A stretch of DNA of 64,000 bases, taken from positions 80,239 to 144,238 of the forward strand of contig JAIPEW010000001.1 of the NCBI GenBank assembly GCA_021736985.1, given 5' to 3'. Of the stretch, positions 19,581 through 36,232 are shown piece after piece. A program made the position numbers and the translations under genes. Within the stretch, counting starts at the first letter, position 1. The number at the start of each line of letters is the position of its first letter. A model generated the notes under the pieces. The model did no database searches and had not been told where the DNA came from. It saw only the letters and a list, made by a program, of their open reading frames with translations. The stretch comes from Clostridiales bacterium. GTDB lineage: Bacteria; Bacillota; Desulfotomaculia; Desulfotomaculales; VENG01.

Positions 19581-19646
19581 TATGATTGCAATGATTTCCG
19601 AAACTTGGTACAATAAAATTATATTTATTCTGGGGAGGGTCTTTTT

Positions 19647-20048
19647 ATGGACCAAAATGACATTTTATTAAACGATGAAAAGACGGGGCTTGGATCTATA
19701 CGAATCGCTGATGAAGTCGTTCGTGTATGTGCAGGCCTGGCTGCTACCGAAGTACAGGGAGTTGCCGGCATGAGTGGTGGAGTAGTTGGTGGTATAACTG
19801 AGATGCTTGGGCGAAAAAATATGTCCAAGGGAGTCAAAGTTGAAGTCGGGGAAAAAGAAGCTGCTGTAGATTTGTTTTTAGTCGTTAATTATGGTGTGCG
19901 TATCCCTGAAGTTGCCGCCAATATTCAAGAAGCAGTAAAAAAATCTATCGAAGAAATGACTGGTCTTAACGTGGTAGAAGTAAATATTAATGTGCAGGGG
20001 GTAGCTTTTCAAGAAGAGGAAAGAGAAGATGAAAATCGTTTAAAATAA
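19647..20048 (+). CDS. Asp23/Gls24 family envelope stress protein
   Basis: 133 aa; GSIRIADEVVRVCAGLAATEVQGVAGM typical of Asp23; conserved position before nusB. Confidence 0.85.
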   Translation: MDQNDILLNDEKTGLGSIRIADEVVRVCAGLAATEVQGVAGMSGGVVGGITEMLGRKNMSKGVKVEVGEKEAAVDLFLVVNYGVRIPEVAANIQEAVKKSIEEMTGLNVVEVNINVQGVAFQEEEREDENRLK

Positions 20049-20098
20049 ATGTATCAAGTACCGTAGTTCCGAGACATGAGTATTCGGGAGTGTAAAAC

Positions 20099-20449
20099 TT
20101 GAGTCTAAGATTTATAAAATCTCTTGTAAGTGGCAATAAGAGAAAATATTTTGTTATAAATGATAATTCTCTGGGTAGGCTTTGCATTTCACTGTATGCA
20201 TTGGAGTCTCTTGCAGAACATGGTATTATGTTTATACCAGGGATTTGTGCAGCAGATACAGAAGTTTACGTGACAGGTGCAGGTATTTATGCCAGTGTTA
20301 ATATAATTGCTTGTCCGGGTAGTGATATTTACTATCTAAACCAGGTCATAAAAGATGCAGTAAAAGAAGAGATATATAATAATGCAGGTGTAAAAGTTGA
20401 AAGGGACAAAATAATAGTACAAAAAATAAGTGTTAAAGAAACAGAATAA
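20099..20449 (+). CDS. hypothetical protein (weakly Asp23-like)
   Basis: 116-aa ORF with TTG start; no motif recognised with confidence. Confidence 0.4.
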   Translation: MSLRFIKSLVSGNKRKYFVINDNSLGRLCISLYALESLAEHGIMFIPGICAADTEVYVTGAGIYASVNIIACPGSDIYYLNQVIKDAVKEEIYNNAGVKVERDKIIVQKISVKETE

Positions 20450-20466
20450 AACCAGAGGGATAATCA

Positions 20467-20871
20467 ATGGCCAGACATCAATTACGTGAATATGCGTTGC
20501 AAATACTGTATGAGGTTGAAATAGGGAAAAACGATACTGATAAAGTGATTAGCAGAAATATAAATTCAAACAGCTTTAAACAGGATGAGACCGGATTTTT
20601 AAAGCAGCTTGTATATGGAACCCTGAAAAATATTGCTGCTATCGATGATATTATCTCACTTTACAGTCGTGATTGGAGTATAAATAGGCTGGCTTATGTG
20701 GATAAAAATATACTGCGCCTTGCCGTTTATGAAATCTTGTATGAAAAGGAAATACCGCGTAGTGTTTCTATAAACGAGGCCGTGGAATTGGCCAAGACGT
20801 TTGGAGGCAATGAATCCCCTAAATTTATCAATGGAATACTGGACGTTGTTGGTAAAAATAGTCAGGAATAA
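20467..20871 (+). CDS. nusB: transcription antitermination factor NusB
   Basis: 134 aa; ARHQLREYALQILYEVEIG and EAVELAKTFGG motifs. Confidence 0.9.
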   Translation: MARHQLREYALQILYEVEIGKNDTDKVISRNINSNSFKQDETGFLKQLVYGTLKNIAAIDDIISLYSRDWSINRLAYVDKNILRLAVYEILYEKEIPRSVSINEAVELAKTFGGNESPKFINGILDVVGKNSQE

Positions 20872-20894
20872 AGTTTTAATAAACATTATAACAA

Positions 20895-20926
20895 TGACCC
20901 GGTCTCCCGGGTCAATATTTTTTAAA
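20895..20926 (+). terminator. rho-independent terminator after nusB
   Basis: TGACCCGG-TCTC-CCGGGTCA hairpin followed by a T-rich run. Confidence 0.7.
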
Positions 20927-21039
20927 AATTTTTTCAATAATCTAAATAGTTGGCAGGAATCAATACTGTGAGCCTAGAAAACAACTTAGTGACATATGCT
21001 TGCTAAAATAATTAAATGAGGAAGGGGAAATGGTTGCTT

Positions 21040-21891
21040 ATGTTCAAGATACTGGAAAAAAGGGAATTCTCCCCTGTTATGAAAGAACTAGTGATTAAAG
21101 CTCCCCGCGTAGCCATGAAGTGCCAGGCCGGACAATTTATTATTCTGCGTATACATGAAGAAGGAGAACGTATTCCCCTTACTATAGCTGATTTTAACCG
21201 GGAAAAAGGCACTATAACCATTGTATTCCAGGAAGTTGGTAAAACAACAATGGAACTGGGAACTCTAAACGTGGGTGATTATGTAAGAGACTTTGTAGGG
21301 CCCCTGGGTGAGCCTACGCATATCGAAAACTTCGGAACAGTTGTATGTATTGGCGGGGGTGTAGGTATTGCTCCTGTTCATCCCATTGCACGGGCTTTAA
21401 AAGAAGCTGGCAACCATGTAATAGGCATAATCGGTTCACGTAACAAAGATCTGTTGTTCTGGGAAGATGAAATGCGGGAAGTATGCAGTGAATTGCATGT
21501 AACTACAGATGACGGTTCTTATGTCAGAAAAGGCTTTGTTACTGACGTACTCAAAGAAATCGTTAACGAAAGGGGTACAGAGAGCGTTGCCCGGGTTATT
21601 GCTATTGGTCCCCAGCCCATGATGAAAGTTACCTGCGGCGTGACAAAAGAATACGGTCTCAAAACTATTGTAAGCCTTAACGCTGTTATGGTAGATGGAA
21701 CAGGCATGTGCGGGTGCTGCCGGGTTTCCGTCGGCGGAGAAACCAAGTTTGTCTGTGTAGACGGCCCTGAATTCGACGGGCACCAGGTAGACTGGACACA
21801 GCTTGGCCGGAGAGCTGCAATATTTAAGTCCGAAGAACAGCAGGCAGTTGAAAAATACAAAAGCCAGTGCAGTTGTGGAGGTGACAAATAA
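21040..21891 (+). CDS. nfnA: ferredoxin-NADP+ reductase-like FAD/NAD-binding subunit (NfnA / sulfide dehydrogenase small-subunit family)
   Basis: MFKILEKREFSP start inside track ORF 21016..21891; C-terminal 2Fe-2S motif GTGMCGCCRV...CVDGPEF; paired with a gltD-like gene. Confidence 0.75.
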   Translation: MFKILEKREFSPVMKELVIKAPRVAMKCQAGQFIILRIHEEGERIPLTIADFNREKGTITIVFQEVGKTTMELGTLNVGDYVRDFVGPLGEPTHIENFGTVVCIGGGVGIAPVHPIARALKEAGNHVIGIIGSRNKDLLFWEDEMREVCSELHVTTDDGSYVRKGFVTDVLKEIVNERGTESVARVIAIGPQPMMKVTCGVTKEYGLKTIVSLNAVMVDGTGMCGCCRVSVGGETKFVCVDGPEFDGHQVDWTQLGRRAAIFKSEEQQAVEKYKSQCSCGGDK

Positions 21892-23300
21892 TGAGCGAAG
21901 AGAAGAAAAAGAAAGAAATAATACCTGATAAAAATCCCATGCCGGCCCAGGATCCCATGGAACGTGCACGCAACTTTAACGAAGTTGCCCTGGGTTATGA
22001 TGAAGAAGCAGCAGTTGCCGAAGCTCAGCGCTGCCTGCAGTGTAAAAAAGAACCCTGCCGCCAGGGATGCCCGGTGGAAGTGAATATTCCCCAGTTTTTG
22101 CGGCAGGTTGCTGAAAGAGATTTTGAAGGTGCTATAAAAACAATAAAAGACAAAAACGCACTTCCTGCTATTTGCGGCCGTGTATGTCCACAGGAAAGCC
22201 AGTGTGAAAGCTACTGTACCCTGGGTAAAAAACACCAGCCAGTATCTATTGGACGGGTAGAACGTTTTTGCGCTGACTGGGAATTAAACAAGGGAGTTAC
22301 TCCACCGGAAATACAGGCTTCTACTACTAAAAAAGTTGCTGTGATAGGTTCTGGCCCTTCCGGTCTTACATGTGCTGCTGACCTGGCTAAAAAAGGACAT
22401 AAAGTTGTCGTATATGAAGCACTGCACGTAGCAGGCGGTGTTTTAATGTATGGTATACCTGAATTTCGCTTGCCTAAAGATGTAGTGCAGGCAGAAATAC
22501 AAAACCTTAAAAAAATGGGTGTTGATATAGAAGTTGATTCAGTAATAGGAAAAGCTGCTACAGTTGACGAATTAATTGAAGAAGAAGGATATGACGCAGT
22601 ATTTATAGGTACGGGCGCAGGACTGCCTTACTTCCTGCGGATACCAGGCGAGAATGCCTGCGGGGTTTATTCGGCCAATGAATTTTTAACCCGTACCAAT
22701 CTGATGAAAGCTTATAAATTCCCTAATTGGGATACTCCTATCAAAGTAGGCGATAAAGTTGCCGTACTTGGTGGCGGCAATGTGGCTATGGACTCTGCAC
22801 GCACGGCCCTGCGCCTGGGTGCAAAAGAATCCTGGATAGTTTACCGTCGTTCCAAGGAAGAGCTGCCTGCCCGTGCAGAAGAAGTAGAGCATGCAGTAGA
22901 AGAGGGAGTTAAGTTTGCACTTTTAACATCACCGGTTGAGATTTACCAGGATGATAACGGGTGGGTTACCGGAATGAAATGCATTCGTTTTGAACTGGGA
23001 GAGCCCGATGCTTCCGGTCGCCGCCGCCCTGTAGCTGTAGAAGGTTCTGAATATGACATGGAAATAAGCAATGTGGTTGTAGCTATCGGCCAGGGACCTA
23101 ACCCGCTGGTTCCGCGTACTACCAGGGGATTAGATCTTACTAAGAAGGGTAATATAGCTGCAGATGAAAGTGCAGCAACTTCTAAACCAGGTGTTTACGC
23201 CGGCGGCGATATTGTAACCGGTGCTGCAACTGTTATTATGGCTATGGGCGCAGGTCGTACTGCTGCCAATTCCATTCATGAATATCTTGTTAATAAGTAA
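21891..23300 (+). CDS. nfnB: NADPH-dependent glutamate synthase small-chain-like oxidoreductase (NfnB)
   Basis: 469 aa; CLQCKKEPCRQGCP Fe-S cluster motifs, VAVIGSGPSGL and VLGGGNVAMD dinucleotide folds. Confidence 0.8.
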   Translation: MSEEKKKKEIIPDKNPMPAQDPMERARNFNEVALGYDEEAAVAEAQRCLQCKKEPCRQGCPVEVNIPQFLRQVAERDFEGAIKTIKDKNALPAICGRVCPQESQCESYCTLGKKHQPVSIGRVERFCADWELNKGVTPPEIQASTTKKVAVIGSGPSGLTCAADLAKKGHKVVVYEALHVAGGVLMYGIPEFRLPKDVVQAEIQNLKKMGVDIEVDSVIGKAATVDELIEEEGYDAVFIGTGAGLPYFLRIPGENACGVYSANEFLTRTNLMKAYKFPNWDTPIKVGDKVAVLGGGNVAMDSARTALRLGAKESWIVYRRSKEELPARAEEVEHAVEEGVKFALLTSPVEIYQDDNGWVTGMKCIRFELGEPDASGRRRPVAVEGSEYDMEISNVVVAIGQGPNPLVPRTTRGLDLTKKGNIAADESAATSKPGVYAGGDIVTGAATVIMAMGAGRTAANSIHEYLVNK

Positions 23301-23326
23301 AGTTAAATAAAAAAGGGGGTTTCAGG

Positions 23327-24211
23327 TTGTCTGCAAAAGTAATTTCAGGCAAGGAAGTTGCACAACAAATAAGATCAGAAATTAAAGTAGAAGTGGACCA
23401 GTTAAAAGAAAAGCATAATGCAGTTCCCGGGTTGGTAACTATTTTGGTGGGAGAAAACCCTGCTTCAGTAAGTTATGTCACGGGAAAAACGAATACGGCA
23501 AAAGAGTTGGGGTATAATTCTATCCAGGATACTCAGTCGGAGGATATTACTGAAGAGCAGTTATTAGCACTGGTAGACAAGTATAACAAAGATGACAGTA
23601 TTCATGGTGTCTTAGTACAGTTGCCTTTACCCAAGCATATAGATTCTAGCAAAGTATTAAATGCAATCGATCCTGATAAGGATGTAGACGGTTTCCACCC
23701 GGTCAACGTAGGCAGGCTGGTAGTAGGAGAAGCTTTGTTCAAGCCTTGTACTCCTGCTGGTATTCAAGAACTGCTGGTTAGAGGCGGGGCCCAGGTATCA
23801 GGGGCAGAAGTGGTAGTTGTTGGTAGAAGTAACATTGTGGGTAAACCTATTACCAATATGCTCTTTCAAAAAGGAGAAGGCGCTAACGCTACAGTTACTG
23901 TAGTGCATACTGGAACCAAAGACATGAGCGCTCATACTAAGCGTGCTGATATTCTGATTGTTGCTGCTGGTAAACCTAAAGCTATAACTGCTGACATGGT
24001 TAAAGAAGGCGCAGCTGTTATTGATGTTGGTGTAAACAGAGTTGGTACTACCCCAGAAGGTAAAGCTAAACTCAACGGGGATGTTGATTACGAAAATGTT
24101 AAAGAAAAAGCCAGTTTGATTACACCAGTACCTGGTGGTGTAGGACCTATGACAATAACCATGCTGATGAAGAACACCCTGGTATCTTACAAAAACAGCT
24201 TGGGATTATAA
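23327..24211 (+). CDS. folD: bifunctional methylenetetrahydrofolate dehydrogenase/cyclohydrolase
   Basis: 294 aa; LVTILVGENPASVSYV, VQLPLP, GRSNIVGKP, TPVPGGVGPMT motifs. Confidence 0.9.
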   Translation: MSAKVISGKEVAQQIRSEIKVEVDQLKEKHNAVPGLVTILVGENPASVSYVTGKTNTAKELGYNSIQDTQSEDITEEQLLALVDKYNKDDSIHGVLVQLPLPKHIDSSKVLNAIDPDKDVDGFHPVNVGRLVVGEALFKPCTPAGIQELLVRGGAQVSGAEVVVVGRSNIVGKPITNMLFQKGEGANATVTVVHTGTKDMSAHTKRADILIVAAGKPKAITADMVKEGAAVIDVGVNRVGTTPEGKAKLNGDVDYENVKEKASLITPVPGGVGPMTITMLMKNTLVSYKNSLGL

Positions 24212-24240
24212 TTTAAAGTAATGTAATGTGTATAAAAAGA

Positions 24241-24285
24241 AACTCCCAGGTTACCGAAACTTCGGTTACTTGGGAGTTTTTATCT
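24241..24285 (+). terminator. rho-independent terminator after folD
   Basis: 18-nt arms AACTCCCAGGTTACCGAA / TTCGGTTACTTGGGAGTT (two mismatches), then TTTTAT. Confidence 0.7.
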
Positions 24286-24310
24286 TTAAGTAAAATACTT
24301 TGAGCAAAAC

Positions 24311-24360
24311 TACCGGCCCCGACCTGGCTGTCAGAAGAATTTTAATTCTTAGTTGTGAGA
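24311..24360 (+). repeat. family A solo R module (copy R7)
   Basis: TACCGGCCCCGACCTGGCTGTCAGAAGAATTTTAATTCTTAGTTGTGAGA; 104 nt upstream of xseA. Confidence 0.8.
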
Positions 24361-24463
24361 AAATAGCTAATGGCGGTTAATTCGAAAAGTTGTAACAGCT
24401 CACTGTTTATCCTGTATAAGCGAATTGTGAGCATCAATACGTGGGAGTTTAATTTATTTAAGG

Positions 24464-25678
24464 ATGGTTTTAATGAAAACAATGACAGTGCGTGAAGTAA
24501 CCACGCACATTAAAGATCTCCTGGAAAACGATTATAAACTGGCCAACTTGTGGGTTAAAGGGGAGATATCTAACTTTAAACGGGCTGCATCGGGGCATAT
24601 ATATTTAACTTTAAAGGATGAGTATTCCAGCGTCAGGGTAGTTATGTTTCGTTCAAGGGCCAGCAGGCTTGTTTTTGAGCCTGAAAACGGTATGGATGTA
24701 AGAGTAAGAGGTTATATATCAATATATGAGCGCAGCGGCCAGTACCAGCTTTATGCACAGGAGATCGAGCCCAGTGGGTACGGGGCGTTGTATGCAGCAT
24801 TTGAGCAGTTAAAAGAAAAATTAAGGCAGGAAGGCCTCTTTGATGATGCTCTTAAAAAAGAAATACCCGGGTACCCCTCGCGCGTTGGGTTAATAACTTC
24901 GCCTTACGGGGCGGCAGTTCGGGATATGATTAATATACTTCGCCGCCGGTGGCCTGGTATAGAAATAATATTAGCCCCGGTAAAGGTCCAGGGAGATAAA
25001 GCAGGCGGCGAAATCTGTAGTGCACTCAAGTTTATGAACTTACTCCGGGATGTAGATTTAATAATTGTAGGACGGGGTGGCGGTGCTTTAGAAGAACTCT
25101 GGGCATTCAATACTGAAGAAGTTTCCCGGGGTATAGCAGTATCTGAAATTCCCGTTATTTCGGCCGTAGGGCATGAAACTGATTTTACAATTGCAGATAT
25201 GGTTGCAGATTTAAGAGCACCTACACCTTCGGCTGCGGCAGAATTTGCTGTTCCAGACAAAATTGAAATGTACAGGTATATTCAAAGCTTGCATTCCCGG
25301 ATGAACCGAAATATTGCAGAAAAGTTTCGCGAGCTGCGCATAAGGCTGCAAAATTGCCAGAGAAGCCGTGTATTTAAGCACCCTGCAGATGTAATATGCG
25401 GCCAGCGCAGGCAAACTGTTGATTGGCTGCAAAAACATATGTTGACTCATATTTCTCAAAAAACAGCAGCCGATAGAAGGCGGTTGGAGGGATCAGCCGG
25501 GCGATTGGAAGCACTTAGCCCGCTGTCTACTCTTGCACGAGGTTACAGCATTTGTATGACGGGAGACGGTAGTGTAATAAGAAAAAGTAGTAGCGTTAAA
25601 GAAGGCGAATATGTTAATATACGTCTTCACAAGGGTTTTTTGCGCTGCCAGGTATATGAAAATGATAGAAAAGACTGA
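24464..25678 (+). CDS. xseA: exodeoxyribonuclease VII large subunit
   Basis: 404 aa; N-terminal OB fold (VKGEISNFKRAASGHIYLTLKD) and catalytic region RGGGALEELWAFN. Confidence 0.9.
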   Translation: MVLMKTMTVREVTTHIKDLLENDYKLANLWVKGEISNFKRAASGHIYLTLKDEYSSVRVVMFRSRASRLVFEPENGMDVRVRGYISIYERSGQYQLYAQEIEPSGYGALYAAFEQLKEKLRQEGLFDDALKKEIPGYPSRVGLITSPYGAAVRDMINILRRRWPGIEIILAPVKVQGDKAGGEICSALKFMNLLRDVDLIIVGRGGGALEELWAFNTEEVSRGIAVSEIPVISAVGHETDFTIADMVADLRAPTPSAAAEFAVPDKIEMYRYIQSLHSRMNRNIAEKFRELRIRLQNCQRSRVFKHPADVICGQRRQTVDWLQKHMLTHISQKTAADRRRLEGSAGRLEALSPLSTLARGYSICMTGDGSVIRKSSSVKEGEYVNIRLHKGFLRCQVYENDRKD

Positions 25679-25764
25679 TTTTTAGAAGTATATTTCTTTT
25701 ATTGTATTTGCTATAATAGAATATGCTAGATAGGGATTTATATGGGAGTTTTAGGAGGTTTTTC

Positions 25765-26007
25765 ATGAGTAAGAAAGAAGAGAACTTCGAGGCGGCACTT
25801 GCTCAATTGGAAGAAACAGTACGCCGGCTGGAAGACGGGCAAATTCCCCTGGAGGAAGCCCTGGATCTATTTACCGAGGGAGTACGTCTCTCTAAAATTT
25901 GCAGCAGTCAACTTGATGCTGCAGAGAAAAAAATAAAATTACTTCTAAATGAAGAAGGACAGCCTATAATAAAAGAAACAGATGATACGTTAAATGGAGG
26001 CACATAG
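25765..26007 (+). CDS. xseB: exodeoxyribonuclease VII small subunit
   Basis: ATG 25765 after AGGAGG; FEAALAQLEETVRRLEDGQIPLEEALDLFTEG is typical XseB. Confidence 0.85.
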   Translation: MSKKEENFEAALAQLEETVRRLEDGQIPLEEALDLFTEGVRLSKICSSQLDAAEKKIKLLLNEEGQPIIKETDDTLNGGT

Positions 26008-26008
26008 A

Positions 26009-26899
26009 ATGGATTTTAAAAAGCAACTGGAAGAAAAAGCTGCTGAGATAGACAAAGCTTTAAATGAATATATGCCTTCTGCAGAAGATTACCCGCCGGT
26101 GATACATGAAGCAATGCGCTACAGTATAATGGCAGGTGGTAAAAGGCTCCGCCCGGTATTAACAATTGCTGCTGCAGAAACAGTGGGTGCTGATCCTGTA
26201 CCGCTAATGCCGGCAGCATGTGCAATGGAATTAATACATACTTATTCGCTGGTACATGATGATTTACCGGCAATGGATAATGATGATCTTCGCCGCGGGC
26301 AGCCTACAAATCATAAAAAGTACGGTGAAGCAGTTGCTGTGCTGGTTGGTGATGCTCTTTTAACCAGGGCTTTTGGAATGGTTGCCCGTGCAGGTAAAGA
26401 AGGTAATTTACCTTCAGAAAATATAGTGCAGGTTATATTGGAAATGTCGGAAGCGTGTGGTAGTTACGGTTTAATTGGTGGCCAGGTAGTTGACACAATA
26501 TATGAGAACAGGGTTGCACAGTCCGAAGATTTAGAGTATATTCATACCCGCAAGACAGGTGCTCTTTATAAGATGGCTGTACGTACCGGCGTTATATTAA
26601 GTGGTGCCGAGGAATGGGAGATAAATGCCCTGACAAATTATGCCGGCAAATTAGGGCTGGTTTTCCAAATTATTGATGACATACTTGATGTAGAAGGCGA
26701 CTCGTATAAACTGGGTAAGCCTACGGGAAGCGATAAGAAGAATAAGAAAGCTACATATCCATCTCTATTTGGTATGGCTGCAGCAAGAGAAAAGGCTGAA
26801 ACAATAGCCCGTGATGCTGCAGAATCTTTACGCCCTTTCGGGGATAGAGCACAGTTTTTAATAGGGCTTCTGGATTTTATATTATTACGAGATTTCTAG
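26009..26899 (+). CDS. ispA: (2E,6E)-farnesyl diphosphate synthase
   Basis: ATG 26009, 8 nt after GGAGG; LVHDDLPAMDNDDLRRG (first Asp-rich motif) and FQIIDDILD (second). Confidence 0.9.
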   Translation: MDFKKQLEEKAAEIDKALNEYMPSAEDYPPVIHEAMRYSIMAGGKRLRPVLTIAAAETVGADPVPLMPAACAMELIHTYSLVHDDLPAMDNDDLRRGQPTNHKKYGEAVAVLVGDALLTRAFGMVARAGKEGNLPSENIVQVILEMSEACGSYGLIGGQVVDTIYENRVAQSEDLEYIHTRKTGALYKMAVRTGVILSGAEEWEINALTNYAGKLGLVFQIIDDILDVEGDSYKLGKPTGSDKKNKKATYPSLFGMAAAREKAETIARDAAESLRPFGDRAQFLIGLLDFILLRDF

Positions 26900-26935
26900 T
26901 ATTACTGTATATAAAATGGATTACAGTTTATAAAT

Positions 26936-26965
26936 TTGCTAGATCGTTAAATAACATGCTATAAT
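26936..26965 (+). promoter_or_regulatory. candidate sigma-A promoter of the OLE RNA gene
   Basis: TTGCTA (-35), 18-nt spacer, extended -10 TGcTATAAT (26957-26965), directly upstream of the structured region. Confidence 0.5.
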
Positions 26966-26974
26966 ATACTGATA

Positions 26975-27570
26975 ATATCTTGCATAGGCAAGGACACTGT
27001 ATTCTAGTCAAGACAACCATTCTTGAAGACGGGCCTAAAAATCCGTCAAGGGCACATCGATGAAGTTCCTGGTGCTGGCTGCTGACGCCCAGTTGGGGGT
27101 TGGTACTGGGAGTTAAGAGGGTAGGGCGATCCACAATGGCATGTGGGCGTTGACCCTGCCTTCGCGGAGACCCAAGTGCGTGGAAGCATGTTATCTATGG
27201 CTTGGGATATAAACCTGCACGTGGTCAAAGCTGCGTGTAGCGTAGCCTGCCTTGAGTGGTAGCGGTGGATCCAATGCTATACATTAACAATTACTACCGG
27301 GCCCTGTGTAATTGTTAATGTGCGGTGAAACCGTTATTGCAAAAGAGGCTAGGGAATGGTTTGTTTTGCCGGGGAAAACCCCTAGACAGTATGTGTTTTA
27401 CATGGTAATACGGGAGTTGCAGTACGGACTAAGTGGCAATCTGGCTCCGAGAAATCGGGAATCTTCTTAAAGGGAAACCGCCGCTCTGGCAACAGGCGGT
27501 GAAGGTTTGGGAAAACCTGCCGGACCTTAAGCCGTAATATTTACCCGTATTACGTCCTTGCCTATCATAT
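26975..27570 (+). ncRNA. ole: OLE (ornate, large, extremophilic) RNA
   Basis: ~700-nt gap with no credible ORF; 12-bp closing helix ATAGGCAAGGAC (26984-26995) / GTCCTTGCCTAT (27554-27565); long-range GTAATACGGG (27405-27414) / CCCGTATTAC (27544-27553); several local GC hairpins; canonical ispA-ole-oapA-dxs context. Confidence 0.75.
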
Positions 27571-27602
27571 ACATATATTAACCTCTAGTATGAGGTGATT
27601 TC

Positions 27603-28181
27603 GTGGCAAATAATAAATCAACTGTTTCTGGTTGTTATATATTAATCGTTGGCATTATTTCTTTTTTTCTGGCAGCCTTTTTTTACGTTGTTTCACATTT
27701 AATATCACAGTATATTAACAATATACTGCTTTCTCTTATTTTTTTATTAATTGTTATCATACTGGGGATAATATCTGATCTTATAGGAACATCTGCTGCT
27801 GCTGGATCTGAAACCATGTTTCATTCCAGGGCATCTAAAAGAATACCAGGAGCCAGGGAAGGCGTATATCTTGTTCGAAACGCGGATAGAGTAGCTAATA
27901 TAGCTAACGACGTTATAGGGGATATAGCAGGTACTGTAAGCGGCGCTATTGGCATTTCCCTGGTTTTTCAGATTGTCTCTAGCTATCCTCAAGTAAACGA
28001 GATTTTTGTTACCATGATTACTACTGCTTTAATAGCATCTCTTACTGTGGGTGGAAAGGCCTTTGGTAAAAAACTGGCCTTGAGCAGGGGAAATGATATT
28101 ATATTTGTTGTTGGGCAAATAATAGCATATTTGAGGAATTTTAAATTTATTAACGTTTTTTTAAACCGGCAGGGTAAGTAA
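27603..28181 (+). CDS. oapA: OLE-associated protein A (small polytopic membrane protein)
   Basis: 192-aa ORF with GTG start after GAGGTGA; about four hydrophobic segments; lies between the OLE RNA and dxs, as described for oapA. Confidence 0.7.
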   Translation: MANNKSTVSGCYILIVGIISFFLAAFFYVVSHLISQYINNILLSLIFLLIVIILGIISDLIGTSAAAGSETMFHSRASKRIPGAREGVYLVRNADRVANIANDVIGDIAGTVSGAIGISLVFQIVSSYPQVNEIFVTMITTALIASLTVGGKAFGKKLALSRGNDIIFVVGQIIAYLRNFKFINVFLNRQGK

Positions 28182-28208
28182 AATAAGTCTCTGATAGAAG
28201 GTGAAATT

Positions 28209-30137
28209 TTGCCTAAAATATTACAAAAAATTAATACTCCTGAAGAATTATCCGGTCTTACTCTTGCAGAAATGGAAACACTGGCCCAGGAGTTGAGAGA
28301 TGATATTATTTATACCGTATCTAAAAATGGAGGTCATCTTGCTCCAAACCTCGGGGTTGTTGAATTGACTATAGCTATGCACCGGGTTTTTTCATCGCCA
28401 AAGGATAAAATAATCTGGGATGTGGGGCACCAGAGTTATACTCATAAGCTTTTAACTTCACGCAGGGACAAGTTTCATACCCTGAGGCAGCTAGGTGGAA
28501 TAAGCGGTTTTCCGAGACCGGAGGAAAGTGACTATGACGCCTTTGCTACGGGACACAGCAGTACAAGCATTTCTGCTGGCCTGGGTATGGCCATTTCCAG
28601 GGACTTAAAAGGTGAAAACAACGAGGTTATTTCTGTTATTGGAGACGGTGCAATGACTGCCGGAATGTCCTTCGAGGCATTGAATCACGCAGGGCATTTA
28701 AAAAATAAACTAATAGTTGTATTAAATGATAATGAGATGAGCATTTCACCAAACGTAGGTGGATTGGCCAGTTATTTTAGCCGCTTAAGATCTGATCCCA
28801 TGTATTACAGGAGTAAAGATGAAATTGAACAGCTGTTGCGTAAAATACCTTCTATAGGGTCTACGGTATTAAAAGTAGTTGAAAGGTTAAAGGACAGCCT
28901 GAAGTACCTGGTAGTTCCAGGAATGTTTTTTGAAGAGCTGGGATACGTTTATTTTGGGCCGGTTGACGGTCACGACATAAAAAGCATGATAAGTGTTATG
29001 GAGCAGGCCCGGTCAGTAAAGGGCCCGGTACTCATACATGTTATTACCAGGAAAGGAAAAGGGTACCAGCCGGCTGAAGAAAATGCAGATAAATTTCACG
29101 GGACCGGACCGTTTGAAATTGATAACGGCAAGCCTTTAAAAGACAAAAGCGTACCGTCTTATACCGAGGTTTTTGGTAATTTCATGGTGAAAGAAGCAGC
29201 AAGTAATGAAAAAATTATCGCAATAACTGCAGCAATGGGCAGTGGAACTGGTTTAAACAAGTTTGCTGAAAACTATCCTGGTAAATTTTTTGATGTAGGT
29301 ATAGCCGAACAGCATGCAGTTACCATGTCAGCCGGTATGGCAAAATCCGGGTACAGGCCTGTTGTAGCAATTTATTCTACTTTTCTGCAGAGAGCTTATG
29401 ACCAGGTGCTGCACGATGTTTGCCTTCAAAAACTTCCTGTTGTGTTTTCCATAGACCGGGGTGGACTGGTAGGTGATGATGGGCCTACTCACCATGGTCT
29501 GTTTGATCTTTCTTACCTGCGCATATTACCTAATATTATTTTAATGAGTCCGAAAGATGAAAATGAACTCCAGAGTATGCTTAAAACTGCTTTGTGCCAG
29601 CCCGGGCCCTGTGCAGTCCGTTATCCCCGGGGAGCAGGTGTTGGAGTTGCATTGGAAGAAGACCCGCCGCTGATTCCGGTTGGCAGGGCAGAAGTTTTAT
29701 CCGAGGGTGAAGATGTCACGCTTATAGCAATTGGCAATTGTACTGAAATGGCAAAGAATGCAGCAGAAACATTATTTACACGCGGAATAAAAGCTGCTGT
29801 CATAAATGCCCGCTTTATTAAGCCGCTGGATGAGGAGTGTATTTTGCATTATTCAAGGCGGACAGGTAAGGTAATAACCATTGAAGAGCATGCGCTGTCT
29901 GGAGGTTTTGGCAGTGCCGTGCTGGAATTGTTAAATAGTTATAATCAATTTAATATACGGACAGAACGTATAGGAATACCTGATTGCTTTGTAGAACATG
30001 GAAATCCCGACATGCTCAGGACCAGGTATGGATTGACAGTAGAGTATATCGTTGACAAAGCGTTAAATATGCATGGTGGCAAGTACTCAGGTGAGAAACC
30101 AAGTTATAAAAGAATGGAAGAAGCTGAGGGTTCGTGA
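28209..30137 (+). CDS. dxs: 1-deoxy-D-xylulose-5-phosphate synthase
   Basis: 642 aa; [14 protein letters not shown] and GDGAMTAGM ThDP motifs; full-length Dxs similarity. Confidence 0.95.
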
Positions 30138-30140
30138 CTT

Positions 30141-30956
30141 ATGGGGTCTAAGCAAAAAAAAGAAAGATTGGATCTTCTCCTGGTAAGCAGAGGGTTTGCC
30201 CTTACCAGGGAAAAGGCCAGGGCTTTTATTATGGCCGGTCAGGTGAAAGTAGATGACCAAAAAATTGACAAGCCCGGCAAAACAGTACCGTGCAGTGCAA
30301 AACTAGAAATGCTGGAAAGGCAAAGGTATGTAAGCAGGGGAGGAAAAAAATTAGAAAAGGCTTTAATATCTTTTAACATTGATCTAACAAATAGCGTCGT
30401 GCTCGATGTAGGTGCTTCTACAGGTGGATTCACAGATTGTATTTTGCAAAATGGAGCACGTAAAGTTTATGCTGTAGATGTAGGATATGGCCAGCTGGAC
30501 TGGTCGCTGCGTAATGATCCCAGGGTAAAAGTAATGGAAAGAACAAATATCAGGCGCATGGAAAGGTCAATGCTTAATGAGATCCCTGATTTTGCTGTTA
30601 TCGACGTATCTTTTATATCCTTAACTATTATATTACCAACTATTAAGATGCTTACTGCGGAAGATGCATCTGTAGTTGCATTAATTAAGCCCCAGTTTGA
30701 GGCAGGACAGTCAAACGTTGGTAATAAAGGAGTAGTTCGAGATTCTTCTGTACATGTAGATGTGCTAAACAAAATTATAAATGCAGTAGAAAGTGAGCGG
30801 GAGTGGGGAATAATTGGACTGGATTATTCGCCTATTAAGGGCCCGGAAGGAAACATAGAATATATAATATATTTTACTAAAAACAAGACTGCTGCAATTA
30901 ACGTGGAAAAAAACGCAAATAAAGTTGTTGAATTAGCGCATATGCAATTAAATTGA
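30141..30956 (+). CDS. tlyA: TlyA-family rRNA 2'-O-methyltransferase
   Basis: 271 aa; S4 domain (RLDLLLVSRGFALTREKARAFIMAG) plus FtsJ-like fold DVGASTGGFTD. Confidence 0.85.
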   Translation: MGSKQKKERLDLLLVSRGFALTREKARAFIMAGQVKVDDQKIDKPGKTVPCSAKLEMLERQRYVSRGGKKLEKALISFNIDLTNSVVLDVGASTGGFTDCILQNGARKVYAVDVGYGQLDWSLRNDPRVKVMERTNIRRMERSMLNEIPDFAVIDVSFISLTIILPTIKMLTAEDASVVALIKPQFEAGQSNVGNKGVVRDSSVHVDVLNKIINAVESEREWGIIGLDYSPIKGPEGNIEYIIYFTKNKTAAINVEKNANKVVELAHMQLN

Positions 30957-31074
30957 TGCGCTTTTTTATTTTAATATACAAAAAATTAATAAATAACAGG
31001 AAAAAGTAGAAGTATTATAGTAATATTGATATTATGTAAGTTAATGCCTCAAGGTGATAACGGGGGGTAATATT

Positions 31075-31944
31075 TTGAAAACCGTGGGGATATGGGCTAA
31101 TATAGAAAAAAAAGAAGTCGCGCAGTTGCTGTTGGATATAATATACTGGCTTGAATCCCGTGATTGTGACGTACTGTTAAACAACGAAGCAGCACTCTGT
31201 TTGAATATGAAATCATCCGGTGACAATTTTCAAGAATTAAGTGAAAAAGTAGATTGTTTAATGGTTTTAGGCGGGGATGGGACACTTTTAAATTGTGCCC
31301 GTAAAACTGCACAGTTTGGTACTCCCCTGTTTGGTGTTAACCTGGGTAGACTCGGGTTTTTGACAGAAACAGATCTCCCGGATTTATACCAGGCTCTGGA
31401 TAATTTATTGAGAGGAAAGTATAAAATAGAAGAAAGAATGATGCTGCAAGCTAGTATCGTAAGAAATGAAAGTATAGTTAAAGAAACTTATGCACTAAAC
31501 GATGTTGTTATAACTAAGGGCGGTTTTGCACGCATAATTTTTTTAGAAACCCTGGTTGATGGTGAACTCTTTACTACATATCCTGCTGACGGGATTATCA
31601 TAGCCAGCCCTACTGGATCTACTGCATATTCTTTGTCTGCAGGGGGCCCGCTGGTAGTTCCCGGTTTAAATTTAATGATTGTTACTCCTATTTGCCCCCA
31701 CGTATTGTGGGCACGGCCGCTTGTTGTTTCGATGGAAAATGAATTAAAAGTTACCTTATTATCTTCCCAGCCAGAGGTTATGCTTACCCTGGACGGCCAG
31801 CAGGGTATTAAGTTAAATCAGGGGGATTCAGTTATTGTTAAGGCGGCACCTTACCGGGCTAAATTCTTAAAACTCACTGAACGAAGTTTTTTAAATATTG
31901 TAAGGCAGAAATTACAGCAGGGGGAAAACGGTGAATACATTTAA
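31075..31944 (+). CDS. nadK: NAD kinase
   Basis: TTG 31075, 7 nt after ACGGGGGG (track ORF begins at GTG 31054); GGDGTLL and NLGRLGFL motifs. Confidence 0.9.
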   Translation: MKTVGIWANIEKKEVAQLLLDIIYWLESRDCDVLLNNEAALCLNMKSSGDNFQELSEKVDCLMVLGGDGTLLNCARKTAQFGTPLFGVNLGRLGFLTETDLPDLYQALDNLLRGKYKIEERMMLQASIVRNESIVKETYALNDVVITKGGFARIIFLETLVDGELFTTYPADGIIIASPTGSTAYSLSAGGPLVVPGLNLMIVTPICPHVLWARPLVVSMENELKVTLLSSQPEVMLTLDGQQGIKLNQGDSVIVKAAPYRAKFLKLTERSFLNIVRQKLQQGENGEYI

Positions 31945-32539
31945 ATTTTGGAAGGGAAAATCACCCCGGGCCGTAAACATTGCACAGGATTTTCTAGGGG
32001 AAATAATTGAACATAAAGATGCTGCAATAGATGCAACAGCCGGCAATGGCAATGATACCTTGTACCTGGCAGAACACGTTGGGCCGGGAGGAACAGTTTA
32101 TGCTTTTGATATCCAGGAATATTCTATCAACCAAACTGCATCCTGCCTGGAAAAGGCAGGTTTGGACCAGCGTGCAGTACTAATATCTTGCGGTCATGAA
32201 AATATGGAAAGCATTCTAATAAATGAATATTCTTGCCGTTCTTGCAAAGCAGCAATTTTTAATCTAGGCTATTTACCGGGGAGCGACAAGTGTGTAAAAA
32301 CAAATTCTGAAACAACTATCAGTGCAGTTAACCAGGCACTTTCCCTGCTCGTTCCAGGGGGAAGGTTAAGCGTAGTAGTTTACAGGGGACACGATGGTGC
32401 AGAAGAAGAATCCCGGGAAGTAAATGATTTAATATTAAATCTTGACCCAAAAAAATACTGGGCTGCAAGTATAAATTTTCCTAACCGTGATTTACAATCA
32501 CCTTATGTGATATTAGTGCAGAAAACGGTAGGTGTCTAA
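31931..32539 (+). CDS. class I SAM-dependent methyltransferase (YtqB-like)
   Basis: 202 aa; DATAGNGNDTLYLA SAM-binding motif; overlaps the nadK stop. Confidence 0.6.
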   Translation: MNTFKFWKGKSPRAVNIAQDFLGEIIEHKDAAIDATAGNGNDTLYLAEHVGPGGTVYAFDIQEYSINQTASCLEKAGLDQRAVLISCGHENMESILINEYSCRSCKAAIFNLGYLPGSDKCVKTNSETTISAVNQALSLLVPGGRLSVVVYRGHDGAEEESREVNDLILNLDPKKYWAASINFPNRDLQSPYVILVQKTVGV

Positions 32540-32996
32540 AGTGAAAGCAGGGCGCCAAAAAAAGATATTAGACATAATTGACAATAAAACAATTGAAACG
32601 CAGCAGCAGTTAGCCAGTGAACTGTACTTTGCCGGGTTTGATGTTACACAGGCGACTCTTTCCAGAGACATAAGAGAACTGGGTTTAGTAAAAGTAGCTG
32701 GCGCCAGCAGTTCTTCTTATTATGCTCTACCCGGTCACTCAATTTCTATCCAGAATGATGAAAGGCTGCGCTGGCGTTTAACAAATGCAGTGATATCCAT
32801 TGATTTTAGTGAAAATTTAATTGTTATTAAAACATATCCAGGTGAAGCGCAGGGTGTAGCACACTCGTTGGATAATATTGATTGGAAAGAAATAATTGGC
32901 ACTGTAGGAGGAGATGATACCGTGTTATTAATAATTAAGCCCAAACGTGCAGTGCCAGGTATTATAGAAAAAATTACTGCCCTTTCCGGGAGGTGA
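32532..32996 (+). CDS. argR: arginine repressor
   Basis: 154 aa; winged-helix QATLSRDIRELGLVK and C-terminal GTVGGDDTVLLI motif. Confidence 0.9.
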   Translation: MSKVKAGRQKKILDIIDNKTIETQQQLASELYFAGFDVTQATLSRDIRELGLVKVAGASSSSYYALPGHSISIQNDERLRWRLTNAVISIDFSENLIVIKTYPGEAQGVAHSLDNIDWKEIIGTVGGDDTVLLIIKPKRAVPGIIEKITALSGR

Positions 32997-33003
32997 TGAT
33001 AGT

Positions 33004-34674
33004 ATGATCAAAAAGTTGGAAATTAAAGATTTTGGAATTATTGAGTACATGGAAGAAAATTTTGAGAGCGGGTTTACTGTTTTAACCGGAGAAACCGGGG
33101 CAGGAAAATCAATAATTATGGATGCACTGCATATGGTGCTCGGAGGAAAAGCTTATGCTGATTATGTAAAGAGTGGTAAAGAAAAGGCTTTAATACAAGC
33201 TGAATTTGAACCCGGAGAACTGCCTGAATTGGAAAAACAGCTTAAGGAATTGGACTTGGAGTTAGAAGACGGTATGTTGATTATGACCAGGCAGATATCC
33301 AGGACAGGCCGCAATGTTTGCAGGGTTAACGGACAAGTTTTGACTCTTCAGCTGTTTAAGCAGATAGGTAAGTATTTAATGGACATGCATGGTCAGCATG
33401 AGCAGCAGTCTCTTTTAAATTCTTCTAAGCACATGGAAATGTTAGATAGATACTCGGGAAAAGAATTATTAAAACATAAAAAAGATGTTTCCGATCTATA
33501 TTCCAGGTGGCTTGCTGTACGGCGGGAACTTGAAAAAATTAAATCGAATAAAAAAGAACGGGCCCGGCAGTCAGACATGTACCGCTTTCAAATACAAGAA
33601 TTAGATGATGCTAATTTATCTCCTGGTGAGGAAGATGAACTGCTGCATGAAAAAAAGCGCCTTGCAAACGCTGAAAAAATTGCCCAGTTAGTGCAGGACA
33701 GCTATACTGCTTTGTATACTGGGGATAATTGCCCTGCTGCTGTTGACCAGATGGGAAAAGTAATACAAAATCTGCAGGAGCTTAAAAACCTGGATGAAAA
33801 TTTTGCTTCAATGGAAGAAGCAATAACATCCGCCTTATACCAGGTAGAAGAGTCTTCCAGAGATTTAGCTTCGTACAGGGATAATATAGAATTCGAACCG
33901 GAAAGGTTGGAAGAAGTAGAAAATAGGCTCAGCCAGATATACCAGTTAAAAAACAAGTACGGTAATTCTGTAGAAGAAATCCTAAAATACAGGGATAGTG
34001 CAGCAGCAGAGCTGCAAAAATTAGATAACACCAGTTTTAAAGAAGATGAACTTGAAAGTAAAAACAATGAACTTGAAAAAGAATACATGGAAAATGCACA
34101 TAAACTAACTGATGCCAGAAAAAAAGCAGCTAAAAAATTAAAAAGTGCAATTGAGACAGAACTAAACGATTTAGAGATGAAAAAAGTGATACTGGAAATA
34201 AAAATAATACCTTCTGAGCCTGGTTCGCAAGGTCTAGAAGATATTGAATTTCTTATTTCTACAAACCCTGGAGAACCGCCGAAACCCCTAAACAAAATAG
34301 CTTCCGGCGGAGAATTATCCAGGATAATGCTTGCATTTAAAAGTGTATTATCGGCAGTAGATCATATACCATCCCTCGTGTTTGATGAAGTTGATACCGG
34401 GATTGGAGGTAAAACTCTCCAGGCAGTGGCAGGCAAGCTAAAACAGTTAAGCAAACACCGGCAAACAATTGTAGTGACTCACGCAGCACCCATTGCTGCA
34501 ATAGCAGATAATCATTTTCTTATTCATAAACAGCAGGCTAAAAATAAAGTTGATGCAAAAGCTTACATATTGGAAGGCGACAAGCGAATCACAGAATTAG
34601 CCAGGATGTTGAGCGGTAGCGATGATTCCTCGGCAGTCCTCGATCATGCCAGGCAGCTGTTAGAACAAAAATAA
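33004..34674 (+). CDS. recN: DNA repair protein RecN
   Basis: 556 aa; Walker A GETGAGKSII, long coiled coil, SGGELSRIMLA signature, FDEVDTGIGG Walker B. Confidence 0.95.
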   Translation: MIKKLEIKDFGIIEYMEENFESGFTVLTGETGAGKSIIMDALHMVLGGKAYADYVKSGKEKALIQAEFEPGELPELEKQLKELDLELEDGMLIMTRQISRTGRNVCRVNGQVLTLQLFKQIGKYLMDMHGQHEQQSLLNSSKHMEMLDRYSGKELLKHKKDVSDLYSRWLAVRRELEKIKSNKKERARQSDMYRFQIQELDDANLSPGEEDELLHEKKRLANAEKIAQLVQDSYTALYTGDNCPAAVDQMGKVIQNLQELKNLDENFASMEEAITSALYQVEESSRDLASYRDNIEFEPERLEEVENRLSQIYQLKNKYGNSVEEILKYRDSAAAELQKLDNTSFKEDELESKNNELEKEYMENAHKLTDARKKAAKKLKSAIETELNDLEMKKVILEIKIIPSEPGSQGLEDIEFLISTNPGEPPKPLNKIASGGELSRIMLAFKSVLSAVDHIPSLVFDEVDTGIGGKTLQAVAGKLKQLSKHRQTIVVTHAAPIAAIADNHFLIHKQQAKNKVDAKAYILEGDKRITELARMLSGSDDSSAVLDHARQLLEQK

Positions 34675-34689
34675 TTATAAATTTTTAGT

Positions 34690-34713
34690 ACCCGCATTCA
34701 GCGGGTTTTTTTA
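34690..34713 (+). terminator. rho-independent terminator after recN
   Basis: ACCCGC-ATTCA-GCGGGT followed by TTTTTTT. Confidence 0.8.
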
Positions 34714-34897
34714 TTTGTGGAAAACAAACAAGAAACTAACATATTAATGCAGCCCTGATTAGTGCCGAGTTTGGTAAACAACGGTTAATATGGATGTAAT
34801 ATTAGTTTAGTGCTCAGGTCAATTTAATAGTACGCTTTTATATTTTAAAAATTTTTAACTGCAGTCATAAAATTTAATTCTTCGAGGGGGGATTGGC

Positions 34898-36211
34898 CTG
34901 AGCACAAAGAAAAAATTAAGAAAAAAATGTTTATACCTGACATTATTTTTTCCCGTTTTTTTTCTTTTATCCGGACAAATAATAAGCTTTATAGCATTTC
35001 CGTCAAACCAAAACATGGTTGTAGGTGATACATTTGAGCCTAAATTTTATATACCCCATGCTGTAATGGAAAATATTAGTTATAAAATTAATTCAAATAA
35101 CGATAAGTTGTTAGAAGACTTTTCTTTTTCTCCTGGAGATGCTGTTGTTGCTGAAACTCCGGGAAAGCTGCACATGGAGATTAAACTCTTTGGGTTAATC
35201 CCCATACGTGAGATGGTAGTTAATGTTATACCCCGGCTGCGTGTTGTTCCATGCGGGCAATCTATAGGGGTACTTTTACACACTAACGGTGTTGTAGTCG
35301 TGGGGATGGCTGGTATAAGTATTAACAGGGAAAAAGTTAATCCTGCTGCTGAAGCTGGTATAAACGCAGGGGATGTAATTATAGAAGCTAACGGAAAAAA
35401 AATAAACAGTGATGTCCAGCTCAGGAAGATAGTAGACCAGGCAGGTGTTAATAAAAAGAAAATTAAAGTAAAAATAAAAAGAAATAATAAAATCTTACAA
35501 AAGAATATATCACCGGTTTATTGCAAAGATACCCGCAGCTACAGGATAGGACTTTTTATACGTGATACAGCTGCCGGGGTAGGCACGCTTACTTTTTATC
35601 ATCCTGAGAGTCAAACTTACGGCGCACTTGGTCACATGATTTCTGATATGAACACATCCAGCAGTACAGATTTAAAAGACGGGTGTATTGTTGGAGCTGA
35701 AATACAGGGAGTACATCCTGGTAAAAAAGGACAACCCGGAGAAAAAATAGGGCTTTTTAATAAAGAAACTTTGCAAGGAAGTATAGAAAAAAACACCAAG
35801 TTTGGTATTTTCGGAAAATTAGAAAAACCTGCTGCAAATTCTTATTATCCCGACCCGATTCCTGTTGCGCTAAATGATGAAATAAAAAAAGGACCTGCTG
35901 AAATTATGACTGTTATAGATGGAAATGATGTGGAAAAATATGATATTGAAATACAACAGGTAGTTCCACAATCTTTTTCAGACGGCAAGGGATTAATAAT
36001 AAAAATTACAGACAAAGATTTGCTGCGGCGAACTGGTGGAATAGTACAGGGAATGAGCGGAAGTCCTATAATTCAAAATAACAAGCTGATAGGTGCAGTT
36101 ACTCATGTTTTCATAAATGACCCCAAGAGAGGATACGGCGTAATGGCCCAATGGATGCTGCAGAAATATAATATTTTTACACAAAATAATAATTTAAACA
36201 AGGTATCTTGA
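34898..36211 (+). CDS. spoIVB: SpoIVB peptidase (S55), start codon uncertain
   Basis: PDZ region plus S55 motifs GTLTFYHPESQTYGALGH and GMSGSPIIQNNKLIGAVTH; the frame is open from 34871 and encodes a signal-anchor (KKKLRKKCLYLTLFFPVFFLLSG) upstream of the first ATG (35015); GAGGGGGG at 34884-34891. Confidence 0.85.
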   Translation: MSTKKKLRKKCLYLTLFFPVFFLLSGQIISFIAFPSNQNMVVGDTFEPKFYIPHAVMENISYKINSNNDKLLEDFSFSPGDAVVAETPGKLHMEIKLFGLIPIREMVVNVIPRLRVVPCGQSIGVLLHTNGVVVVGMAGISINREKVNPAAEAGINAGDVIIEANGKKINSDVQLRKIVDQAGVNKKKIKVKIKRNNKILQKNISPVYCKDTRSYRIGLFIRDTAAGVGTLTFYHPESQTYGALGHMISDMNTSSSTDLKDGCIVGAEIQGVHPGKKGQPGEKIGLFNKETLQGSIEKNTKFGIFGKLEKPAANSYYPDPIPVALNDEIKKGPAEIMTVIDGNDVEKYDIEIQQVVPQSFSDGKGLIIKITDKDLLRRTGGIVQGMSGSPIIQNNKLIGAVTHVFINDPKRGYGVMAQWMLQKYNIFTQNNNLNKVS

Positions 36212-36232
36212 GGCATTGCGCCTCAATTTTTC
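36208..36232 (+). terminator. rho-independent terminator after spoIVB
   Basis: TTGAGGC-ATTGC-GCCTCAA followed by TTTTT; overlaps the stop codon. Confidence 0.75.

Follow-up and report, generated by a model that had tools for sequence, protein, structure and literature searches.

The window (the whole 64-kb stretch of DNA that was analyzed) contains, between ispA and dxs, a standard and intact copy of the known OLE RNA, with oapA in the canonical slot. Very likely, the region is a module of ole and oapA that belongs to the OLE ribonucleoprotein system already known. OLE is reportedly the "ornate, large, extremophilic" RNA of Puerta-Fernandez 2006, and the family has been characterized since 2006.

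OLE RNA and its gene neighborhood

When all 64 kb were scanned against Rfam 15, the OLE covariance model (RF01071) matched positions 26975-27575 of the + strand over its entire length (model positions 1-616 of 616) with a score of 479.5 bits and an E-value of 1.3e-137. The initial annotation had named the region as OLE RNA, and this significant full-length match, at 479.5 bits versus a gathering cut-off of 50 bits, bears out that assignment. No other Rfam family reached its gathering threshold in the 64-kb window, and no tRNAs were found in it. The element was 601 nt long, whereas the family is defined by a length of ~600 nt with about a quarter of the positions highly conserved, and 225 of the 249 strongly conserved (uppercase) consensus positions were identical in the window (90%). 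Among the 24 conserved positions that differed, the biggest single group (6/24) lay in helix P1, which still formed 12 Watson-Crick pairs, and the remaining differences were scattered, including two positions deleted in P13. The minimum free energy (MFE) of the element was -244.3 kcal/mol, versus -194.6 ± 4.5 for shuffled sequences (z = -11.2), and none of 20 shuffles folded equally well. The helices annotated by Rfam, P4-P15, were present, as were P1-P3. The features of the locus are listed below by position in the window.

26936-26941, + strand: -35 box TTGCTA; TTG-type -35 boxes recur upstream of OLE in relatives
26957-26965, + strand: extended -10 box TGcTATAAT; a -10 box recurs in 63 loci, preceded by TG in 60
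26975-27575, + strand: OLE RNA (RF01071), full-length type, from the covariance model, consensus identity, and fold z-score
26984-26995, + strand: P1, 5' arm, pairing with 27554-27565
26996-27007, + strand: P2, 5' strand; ACUGU (26996-27000) pairs with 27386-27390, and CUAG (27004-27007) pairs with 27382-27385
27013-27023, + strand: P3/P3.1, 5' strand, pairing with 27353-27364, with U27360 bulged
27028-27047, + strand: P4 hairpin with A-rich loop CCUAAAAA, from the Rfam match
27297-27305, + strand: P9 terminal loop with the palindrome GGGCCC, fitting the consensus GGCC loop
27349-27364, + strand: second invariant CUAG palindrome (27349-27352), then the 3' strand of P3.1/P3, from the 63-sequence set
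27382-27390, + strand: P2, 3' strand (CUAG and ACAGU), from pairing in the 63-sequence set
27405-27414, + strand: long-range helix, 5' arm, from the Rfam consensus structure and covariation
27446-27459, + strand: P13, shortened to 5 bp with a GAAA tetraloop and no single-nucleotide bulge; 9 model positions deleted
27477-27500, + strand: P14.1-type hairpin with the GNRA loop GCAA, from the Rfam match and the 63-sequence set
27544-27553, + strand: long-range helix, 3' arm, from the Rfam consensus structure and covariation
27554-27565, + strand: P1, 3' arm, pairing with 26984-26995
27570-27575, + strand: UACAUA motif just 3' of P1, from the recurrence of TACAT in relatives
27592-27597, + strand: Shine-Dalgarno sequence GAGGTG of oapA; ATGAGGTGA occurs at the same position in many relatives
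27603-28181, + strand: oapA, 192 aa, GTG start, from homology, motif, helices, and fold

The RNA belongs to the full-length type of RF01071 (Fernando and Breaker 2024, PMC11332333), because P7, P8, and a long P9 are all present, and not to variant 1 or 2. It shares with this type the length of ~600 nt, the 90% agreement at conserved nucleotides, the A-rich loop of P4, the palindromic GGGCCC loop of P9, and other consensus hairpin loops that fit the model and that should include the P5.1/P6.1 kissing loops. It also shares the slot directly 5' of oapA between ispA and dxs, a proximal promoter of its own, and a host lineage of anaerobic Bacillota. It differs from the type in its P13, which has 5 bp and GAAA without the conserved single-nucleotide bulge, and in its P1, which at 12 bp is longer than the GUGGU/ACCAC core of the Rfam consensus. 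P13 is likewise shortened in variant 1 (TANB77 clade; PMC11332333); however, P7, P8, and P9 are shortened in variant 1 as well, whereas those of the window are full size, which separates the two.

The ispA gene encodes a farnesyl-diphosphate synthase (NCBIfam, 357.9 bits) and ends at 26899, and the next credible coding sequence starts with GTG at 27603, 28 nt after the end of the Rfam match. The initial annotation had described the ~700-nt gap between them as containing only two short antisense ORFs; these exist (68 and 60 aa), but a 52-aa sense ORF had gone unmentioned. The gap was also richer in GC than its flanks, as had been remarked (0.48-0.50 inside versus 0.32-0.46 in the flanks). The genes found around the RNA are xseA-xseB-ispA-OLE-oapA-dxs-tlyA-nadK-mnmM-argR-recN, so that the gene order previously given on the 3' side of OLE stands for every gene it listed but omitted mnmM (31931-32539) between nadK and argR. 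Further upstream of xseA lie spoIIIAE-AH, an Asp23-family gene, nusB, two oxidoreductase genes, and folD, and further downstream of recN lie spoIVB and spo0A. In published ole loci, the neighboring genes serve isoprenoid synthesis, translation, DNA repair, and sporulation, and the gene order of the window matches this association (PMC12265935).

For comparison, we used a sample of 80 genome loci encoding homologs of the 192-aa downstream protein, mostly from Desulfotomaculia-like, Peptococcaceae-labeled, and Syntrophomonadaceae genomes and metagenome-assembled genomes (MAGs). An OLE match lay directly upstream of the OapA homolog in 66 of the 80 loci and was full length in 62. Helices were tested on a set of 63 OLE sequences that included the window, the identity to the window being 59-79%.

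Promoter and transcription of the OLE gene

The promoter proposed earlier for OLE itself, TTGCTA-18-TGcTATAAT at 26936-26965, was the best promoter-like site in 26500-28400, with 10/12 matches and the additional TG. The same architecture recurred in the relatives: the best promoter-like site upstream of OLE had a -10 box that departed from TATAAT at no more than one position in 63/63 loci, this box was preceded by TG in 60/63, and the spacing to the -35 box was 16-19 nt, mostly 17-18. The distance from the end of the -10 box to the start of P2 was also similar, with a median of 34 nt and a value of 30 nt in the window. A promoter score of at least 10 was obtained in 62/63 loci, compared with 0.6% of 310 control windows from coding DNA. 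In B. halodurans, OLE is transcribed at a high level from its own proximal promoter, and the ends mapped by 5'-RACE fall close to where P1 begins (Wallace et al. 2012, PMC3413148), and this promoter increases OLE expression more than 100-fold (PMC3413148). The conserved promoter of the window agrees with this proximal promoter (PMC3413148), and by analogy we infer a transcription start at about 26971-26975.

On the + strand, neither the stretch from ispA to the promoter nor the one from OLE to oapA contained a terminator-like site; therefore, upstream read-through and co-transcription with oapA are both likely, and each of them has been reported from B. halodurans. The absence of such a site after ispA, together with the report that part of the OLE RNA of B. 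halodurans is co-transcribed with the neighboring genes (PMC3413148, PMC12265935), might favor the explanation that OLE has no promoter of its own and is an internal, processed segment of an xseA-xseB-ispA-dxs read-through transcript, with TTGCTA-18-TGcTATAAT as a chance match in AT-rich DNA. This explanation is very unlikely, however, given a site scoring at least 10 at a constant distance in nearly every OLE locus against so few of the controls, the TG in 60 of them, and the more than 100-fold effect of the equivalent promoter in B. halodurans (PMC3413148).

Secondary structure of the OLE RNA

A 12-bp helix that closes the element, ATAGGCAAGGAC (26984-26995) with GTCCTTGCCTAT (27554-27565), had been noticed in the sequence; it is exact and was recovered in the MFE fold. 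Rfam leaves both ends of OLE unpaired and does not annotate P1-P3. A count by columns of a MAFFT alignment gave only 29-50% pairing for this helix, which is a register artifact at misaligned ends, and we therefore anchored the count at two fixed points, the base at which P2 begins and the base at which the long-range helix ends. Counted in this way, 58 of the 63 sequences had 7-14 contiguous pairs at the same junction, mostly 10-11 bp (12 in the window), and the mean number of contiguous pairs was 9.9 at the best register versus 0.5 at other registers. The helix covaried, with several pair types at positions 7-10, and its arms took forms such as GUGAC/GUCAC, AAGGUU/AACCUU, and GGUGGC/GCCACC, the window having GGAC/GUCC. 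It abuts both P2 and the long-range helix. Because the anchored count revealed a contiguous, covarying helix, the 12-bp closing helix corresponds to stem P1 of OLE; its length is typical of this Desulfotomaculia-like clade. As a separate observation on the 3' end, TACAT occurred 11-30 nt past the long-range helix in 30/63 relatives (shuffle mean 5, maximum 14).

P2 was paired in 98% of the cells for its ACUGU/ACAGU part (P2a) and in 100% for its CUAG part across the 63 sequences; the CUAG palindromes are invariant, so they provide no evidence from covariation. By analogy with the published complex (PMC12265935), the 5' strand of P2 is a candidate contact site for OapA. In P3.1, 96% of the cells were paired and a column had as many as 7 pair types; the alignment was gapped across P3 proper, and the P3/P3.1 stem extended to about 16 bp in the MFE fold. 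A CTAGGG/CCCTAG hairpin had been listed earlier among the local helices, but it clashes with the covarying P3.1 and with P2, and we rejected it as a conserved helix, two of its six pairs forming in only 20/63 and 47/63 sequences.

The GACGG/CCGTC hairpin reported previously is P4, with 99% of cells paired in the 63 sequences and an A-rich loop. In cryo-EM structures, the A-rich loop of P4 is a dimer contact (PMC12265935), and the palindromic loop of P9 is a kissing-loop dimer contact in the published structures (PMC12265935). The sequences CCUAAAAAU, GCCCA, and AAUGGCAUG and the palindrome GGGCCC in the window agree with the family consensus of the dimer-contact loops, to which the stem names P4, P5.1/P6.1, and P9 were given by our own reading of PMC12265935. 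Likewise, the ACCGCC/GGCGGT hairpin of the initial annotation proved to be a helix of the Rfam model with GCAA, a GNRA loop, at its tip; we assigned it to P14.1, following the name used in PMC7936274.

The long-range helix GTAATACGGG/CCCGTATTAC was among the best supported pairings, with 619/626 cells paired (99%) and up to 6 pair types per column, and the helix 27423-27/27532-36 was 98% paired in the 63 sequences. The pairing of CGTAATA with TATTACG (27533-39/27548-54), which had been put forward as a mutually exclusive alternative to the long-range helix, was formed in 42% of the cells in relatives, which is the chance level. We rejected an alternative-pairing switch, since the pairing stayed at chance level in 63 homologs and was missing from both the MFE and the centroid folds. 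Its 5' arm lies within the conserved 27423-27/27532-36 helix, and the comparison gives no support for a conserved switch.

These results bear directly on whether OLE acts mainly as a cis-acting 5' leader of oapA-dxs, regulating these genes in a riboswitch-like manner in which 27544-27553 would pair either with 27405-27414 or with 27533-27539 but not with both. Both complementarities do exist in the window sequence, and the gap between OLE and oapA is just 28 nt with no terminator; however, the alternative pairing at 42% is no match for a long-range helix paired at 99% with strong covariation in 63 relatives, bases 27532-27536 belong to the other conserved helix (98% paired), and neither the MFE fold nor the centroid fold uses the alternative. 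The published genetics, moreover, describe a trans-acting ribonucleoprotein (PMC3413148). In several relatives (for example, loci L052, L061, L054, and L071), OLE and oapA are separated by a terminator-like hairpin, which the window lacks, and OLE is thus a separate RNA in those genomes, which also argues against a leader. Taken with these points, a mainly cis-regulatory role is highly improbable, and an OLE RNA that functions in a ribonucleoprotein remains the preferred reading.

Shortened P13 and the composition of the particle

P13 is the primary binding site of OapB; in H. halodurans it has a GNRA tetraloop and a bulge of one nucleotide that is critical for the binding (PMC7936274). Of this canonical docking module, the window has the GNRA loop (GAAA) and lacks the precisely placed bulge. 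Most relatives had a longer P13 stem with a GNRA loop, a few others lacked the GNRA loop, and in the closest relative (L001) P13 contained a long insertion and no GNRA loop. OapB occurs in about 60% of OLE hosts and is lacking in about 40% (PMC11332333), and in variant 1 RNAs the nucleotides that OapB binds at the P13 terminus are often missing (PMC11332333). Because about 40% of OLE hosts have no OapB, the short P13 is within the known diversity (PMC11332333), and the missing docking module concerns the make-up of the particle and not membership in the OLE family. With a P13 that lacks the bulge, the particle may contain a different set of proteins than in the H. halodurans model, and the sequence suggests that the particle of the window lineage may not use OapB. 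It is conceivable, and we state it tentatively, that in the lineage of the window and L001 a full-length OLE has lost the canonical OapB docking module, with assembly proceeding either without OapB or via the secondary P14.1 GNRA site alone. A tblastn search with C. acetobutylicum OapC as the query found no oapC in the window.

That the copy is a decaying or non-functional remnant, as the truncated P13, a distal P7 that is 8 nt shorter, and several non-canonical pairs in the model alignment might suggest, is scarcely credible beside a full-length 479.5-bit match with 225/249 conserved positions identical, 12 Watson-Crick pairs kept in P1 despite 6/24 of the differences falling there, an intact promoter and oapA, and the known variation of P13 and P7-P8 within the family (PMC11332333).

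OapA protein

The 192-aa product of the downstream gene aligned with C. acetobutylicum OapA at 35% identity (E-value 9e-27; residues 12-188), the reference sequence being taken from Supplementary Table 4 of Kretsch et al. 2025 (PMC12286853), in agreement with the earlier proposal that it is OapA. It contains a DxxxD motif, D103-V-I-G-D107, that was invariant in 21 homologs; this motif sets OapA apart from CNNM domains (PMC11332333). A cluster of basic residues (R76, K79, R80, R85, R92, and R96) occupies the loop between helices 2 and 3, and K79 and R92 were invariant. The description of the protein as a polytopic membrane protein is supported by four long hydrophobic helices, at about 10-38, 41-67, 94-127, and 133-161, seen in an AlphaFold2 model (pLDDT 78.7) and in the hydropathy. 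In a fold search against the PDB, ranks 1-6 were CorB/CorC CNNM structures (MtCorB 7M1T/7M1U and CorC 7CFF/7CFG); the matches were weak, with E-values of 0.065 or worse and TM-scores of 0.38-0.54. The structure 7M1U is also the top match published for H. halodurans OapA (PMC11332333).

No Pfam or NCBIfam model matched the 192-aa protein, even at E-values up to 10, and no CBS or CorC domains were found in it; for this reason, its identity was drawn from the literature sequence, the motifs, and the fold. The lack of a match also accounts for the automatic annotation as "hypothetical protein" or the mislabeling of relatives as "CorB": the exact 192-aa sequence is on file from a "Clostridiales bacterium" MAG under the name hypothetical protein, and some homologs are labeled "CNNM transmembrane domain-containing protein" or "CorB". 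Judged by its sequence, the protein is OapA. It shares with OapA of H. halodurans and C. acetobutylicum a length of about 190 aa, four transmembrane helices, the DxxxD motif, basic residues in the loop joining helices 2 and 3, the absence of CBS and CorC domains, and a gene located directly 3' of ole, and its predicted fold may be CNNM-like as well; it differs from the C. acetobutylicum protein in being just 35% identical to it.

OapA loci without OLE

OLE and OapA have been described as almost completely mutually inclusive (PMC11332333). In 11 loci of the sample, oapA and dxs directly followed ispA, the gaps measured just 10-420 nt, and there was no OLE in the slot. Searches of these 11 slots with single-sequence nhmmer, profile nhmmer at E-values up to 10, five conserved-motif patterns, and Rfam at the gathering threshold found no traces of OLE. 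The OapA proteins of the 11 loci formed a single clade in a neighbor-joining tree and kept the RNADRVAN motif, and 9 of the 11 had the pattern ND[IV][IV]GD[IV].

Proposed working of the ole-oapA module

If the region works like the OLE systems that have been studied, a sigma-A-type extended -10 promoter directly 5' of the full-length, P1-closed OLE gene would drive transcription from a start near 26971-26975 and yield an abundant, stable RNA of ~590-600 nt, as known from OLE of H. halodurans and Clostridium; the half-life of OLE is reported to be about 3 h, and stress phenotypes have been described (PMC3413148). OLE would either be co-transcribed with oapA and then processed, or its transcript would run on into oapA-dxs. 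OLE forms a homodimer via the loops of P4, P5.1/P6.1, and P9 (PMC12286853, PMC12265935), and the RNA of the window, which has the sequence elements of the dimerization seen by cryo-EM, would be expected to dimerize in the same way. OapA binds near the CUAG palindromes by P3, and the complex localizes to the membrane (PMC12265935). Following the model of an OLE dimer at the membrane (PMC12265935, PMC12286853), dimers of OapA would bind the window RNA close to the invariant CUAG palindromes on either side of P3 and would place it at or in the membrane. The particle may then help the cell to withstand stress from, for example, cold, short-chain alcohols, an excess of Mg2+, or poor carbon sources. 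By analogy, OapA is probably a CNNM-like divalent-cation transporter; a role of OLE in stress adaptation has been linked to Mg2+ through the relation of OapA to MpfA/CorB (PMC11332333).

Significance

The OLE of the window is an ordinary member of an already known class and brings no new biology, and this copy raises no question that other OLE loci have not already posed. OLE is among the largest bacterial non-coding RNAs of unknown biochemical function, and a correct annotation is of some value for that reason; here, the gain concerns oapA, which is currently annotated as a "hypothetical protein". Several of the comparative results may be of modest use to OLE specialists, namely, the clade-wide extended -10 promoter, the P1 of 10-11 bp, the UACAU after P1, the variation of P13 among lineages, and the clade that has ispA-oapA-dxs with an OLE-less slot. 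If assembly without OapB were true of the window lineage, it would be a natural experiment on the contribution of OapB to the folding of domain 2.

A clade of oapA loci without OLE between ispA and oapA

Among the 80 relative loci encoding homologues of the window's OapA, the membrane-protein partner of the non-coding RNA OLE (Rfam RF01071), 11 had ispA directly before oapA, and their OapA proteins formed a single clade. These loci, with a further entry for the same observation, are as follows.

L013, L014, L015, L022, L029, L035, L037, L039, L055, L063 and L074: oapA at position ~4001 in each
L082, 4827-8533: further entry for the observation of oapA without OLE

The ispA-oapA-dxs-tlyA-nadK synteny was retained in this clade, and the gap between ispA and oapA spanned only 10-420 nt, in which neither nhmmer nor conserved-motif patterns nor Rfam, run at its gathering threshold, detected OLE. 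The OapA proteins of the clade retained RNADRVAN, and 9 of the 11 matched the pattern ND[IV][IV]GD[IV]. The presence of OLE and OapA has been reported to be nearly completely mutually inclusive (PMC11332333), so this clade has either lost ole or relocated it.

Two loci with Bacillota-type oapA synteny came from metagenome-assembled genomes labelled Armatimonadota (L012, with OLE upstream of oapA) and Actinomycetota (L014, a member of the OLE-less clade). An error in binning or taxonomy probably explains both labels. For non-Bacillota OLE matches, horizontal transfer or assembly errors were suspected by Fernando and Breaker (PMC11332333).

Variation within and downstream of OLE

In the window, P13, the OLE hairpin that is the primary OapB-binding site (27446-27459), was shortened to 5 bp with a GAAA loop, and its bulge was absent. 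At this position, the closest relative (L001, ~3215-3260) held a longer stem with a 12-nt, non-GNRA loop, and the canonical bulged GNRA hairpin was retained in most other relatives.

A few nucleotides 3' of the 3' arm of P1, the helix closing OLE, UACAU(A) occurred in 30 of the 63 OLE loci, against a mean of 5 and a maximum of 14 in shuffled sequences, and might signal the 3' end or a processing site.

27570-27575 in the window, with counterparts at the matching position of 29 related loci: UACAU(A) motif

A G+C-rich terminator-like hairpin lay between OLE and oapA in some relatives (L052, L061, L054, L071 and L033), whereas in the window and many others only ~30-40 nt separated the two, with a Shine-Dalgarno context conserved as ATGAGGTGA. 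The transcriptional coupling of ole and oapA therefore seems, from these sequences, to vary by lineage.

Genomic surroundings and annotation of OapA

The OLE locus lies in a sporulation-rich stretch (window ~17600-37400, mapped from L081), in which spoIIIAE-AH precede it and spoIVB and spo0A follow it.

~19647-20048 in the window: Asp23-family gene

We suspect that this gene is a yqhY candidate; yqhY is among the genes most frequently found near ole (PMC12265935).

The window's OapA (192 aa, 27603-28181) had no Pfam-A or NCBIfam match at E-values up to 10. It is annotated as "hypothetical protein," and the name "Mg2+/Co2+ transporter CorB" is attached to some of its homologues, which leaves a well-studied protein with an annotation gap.
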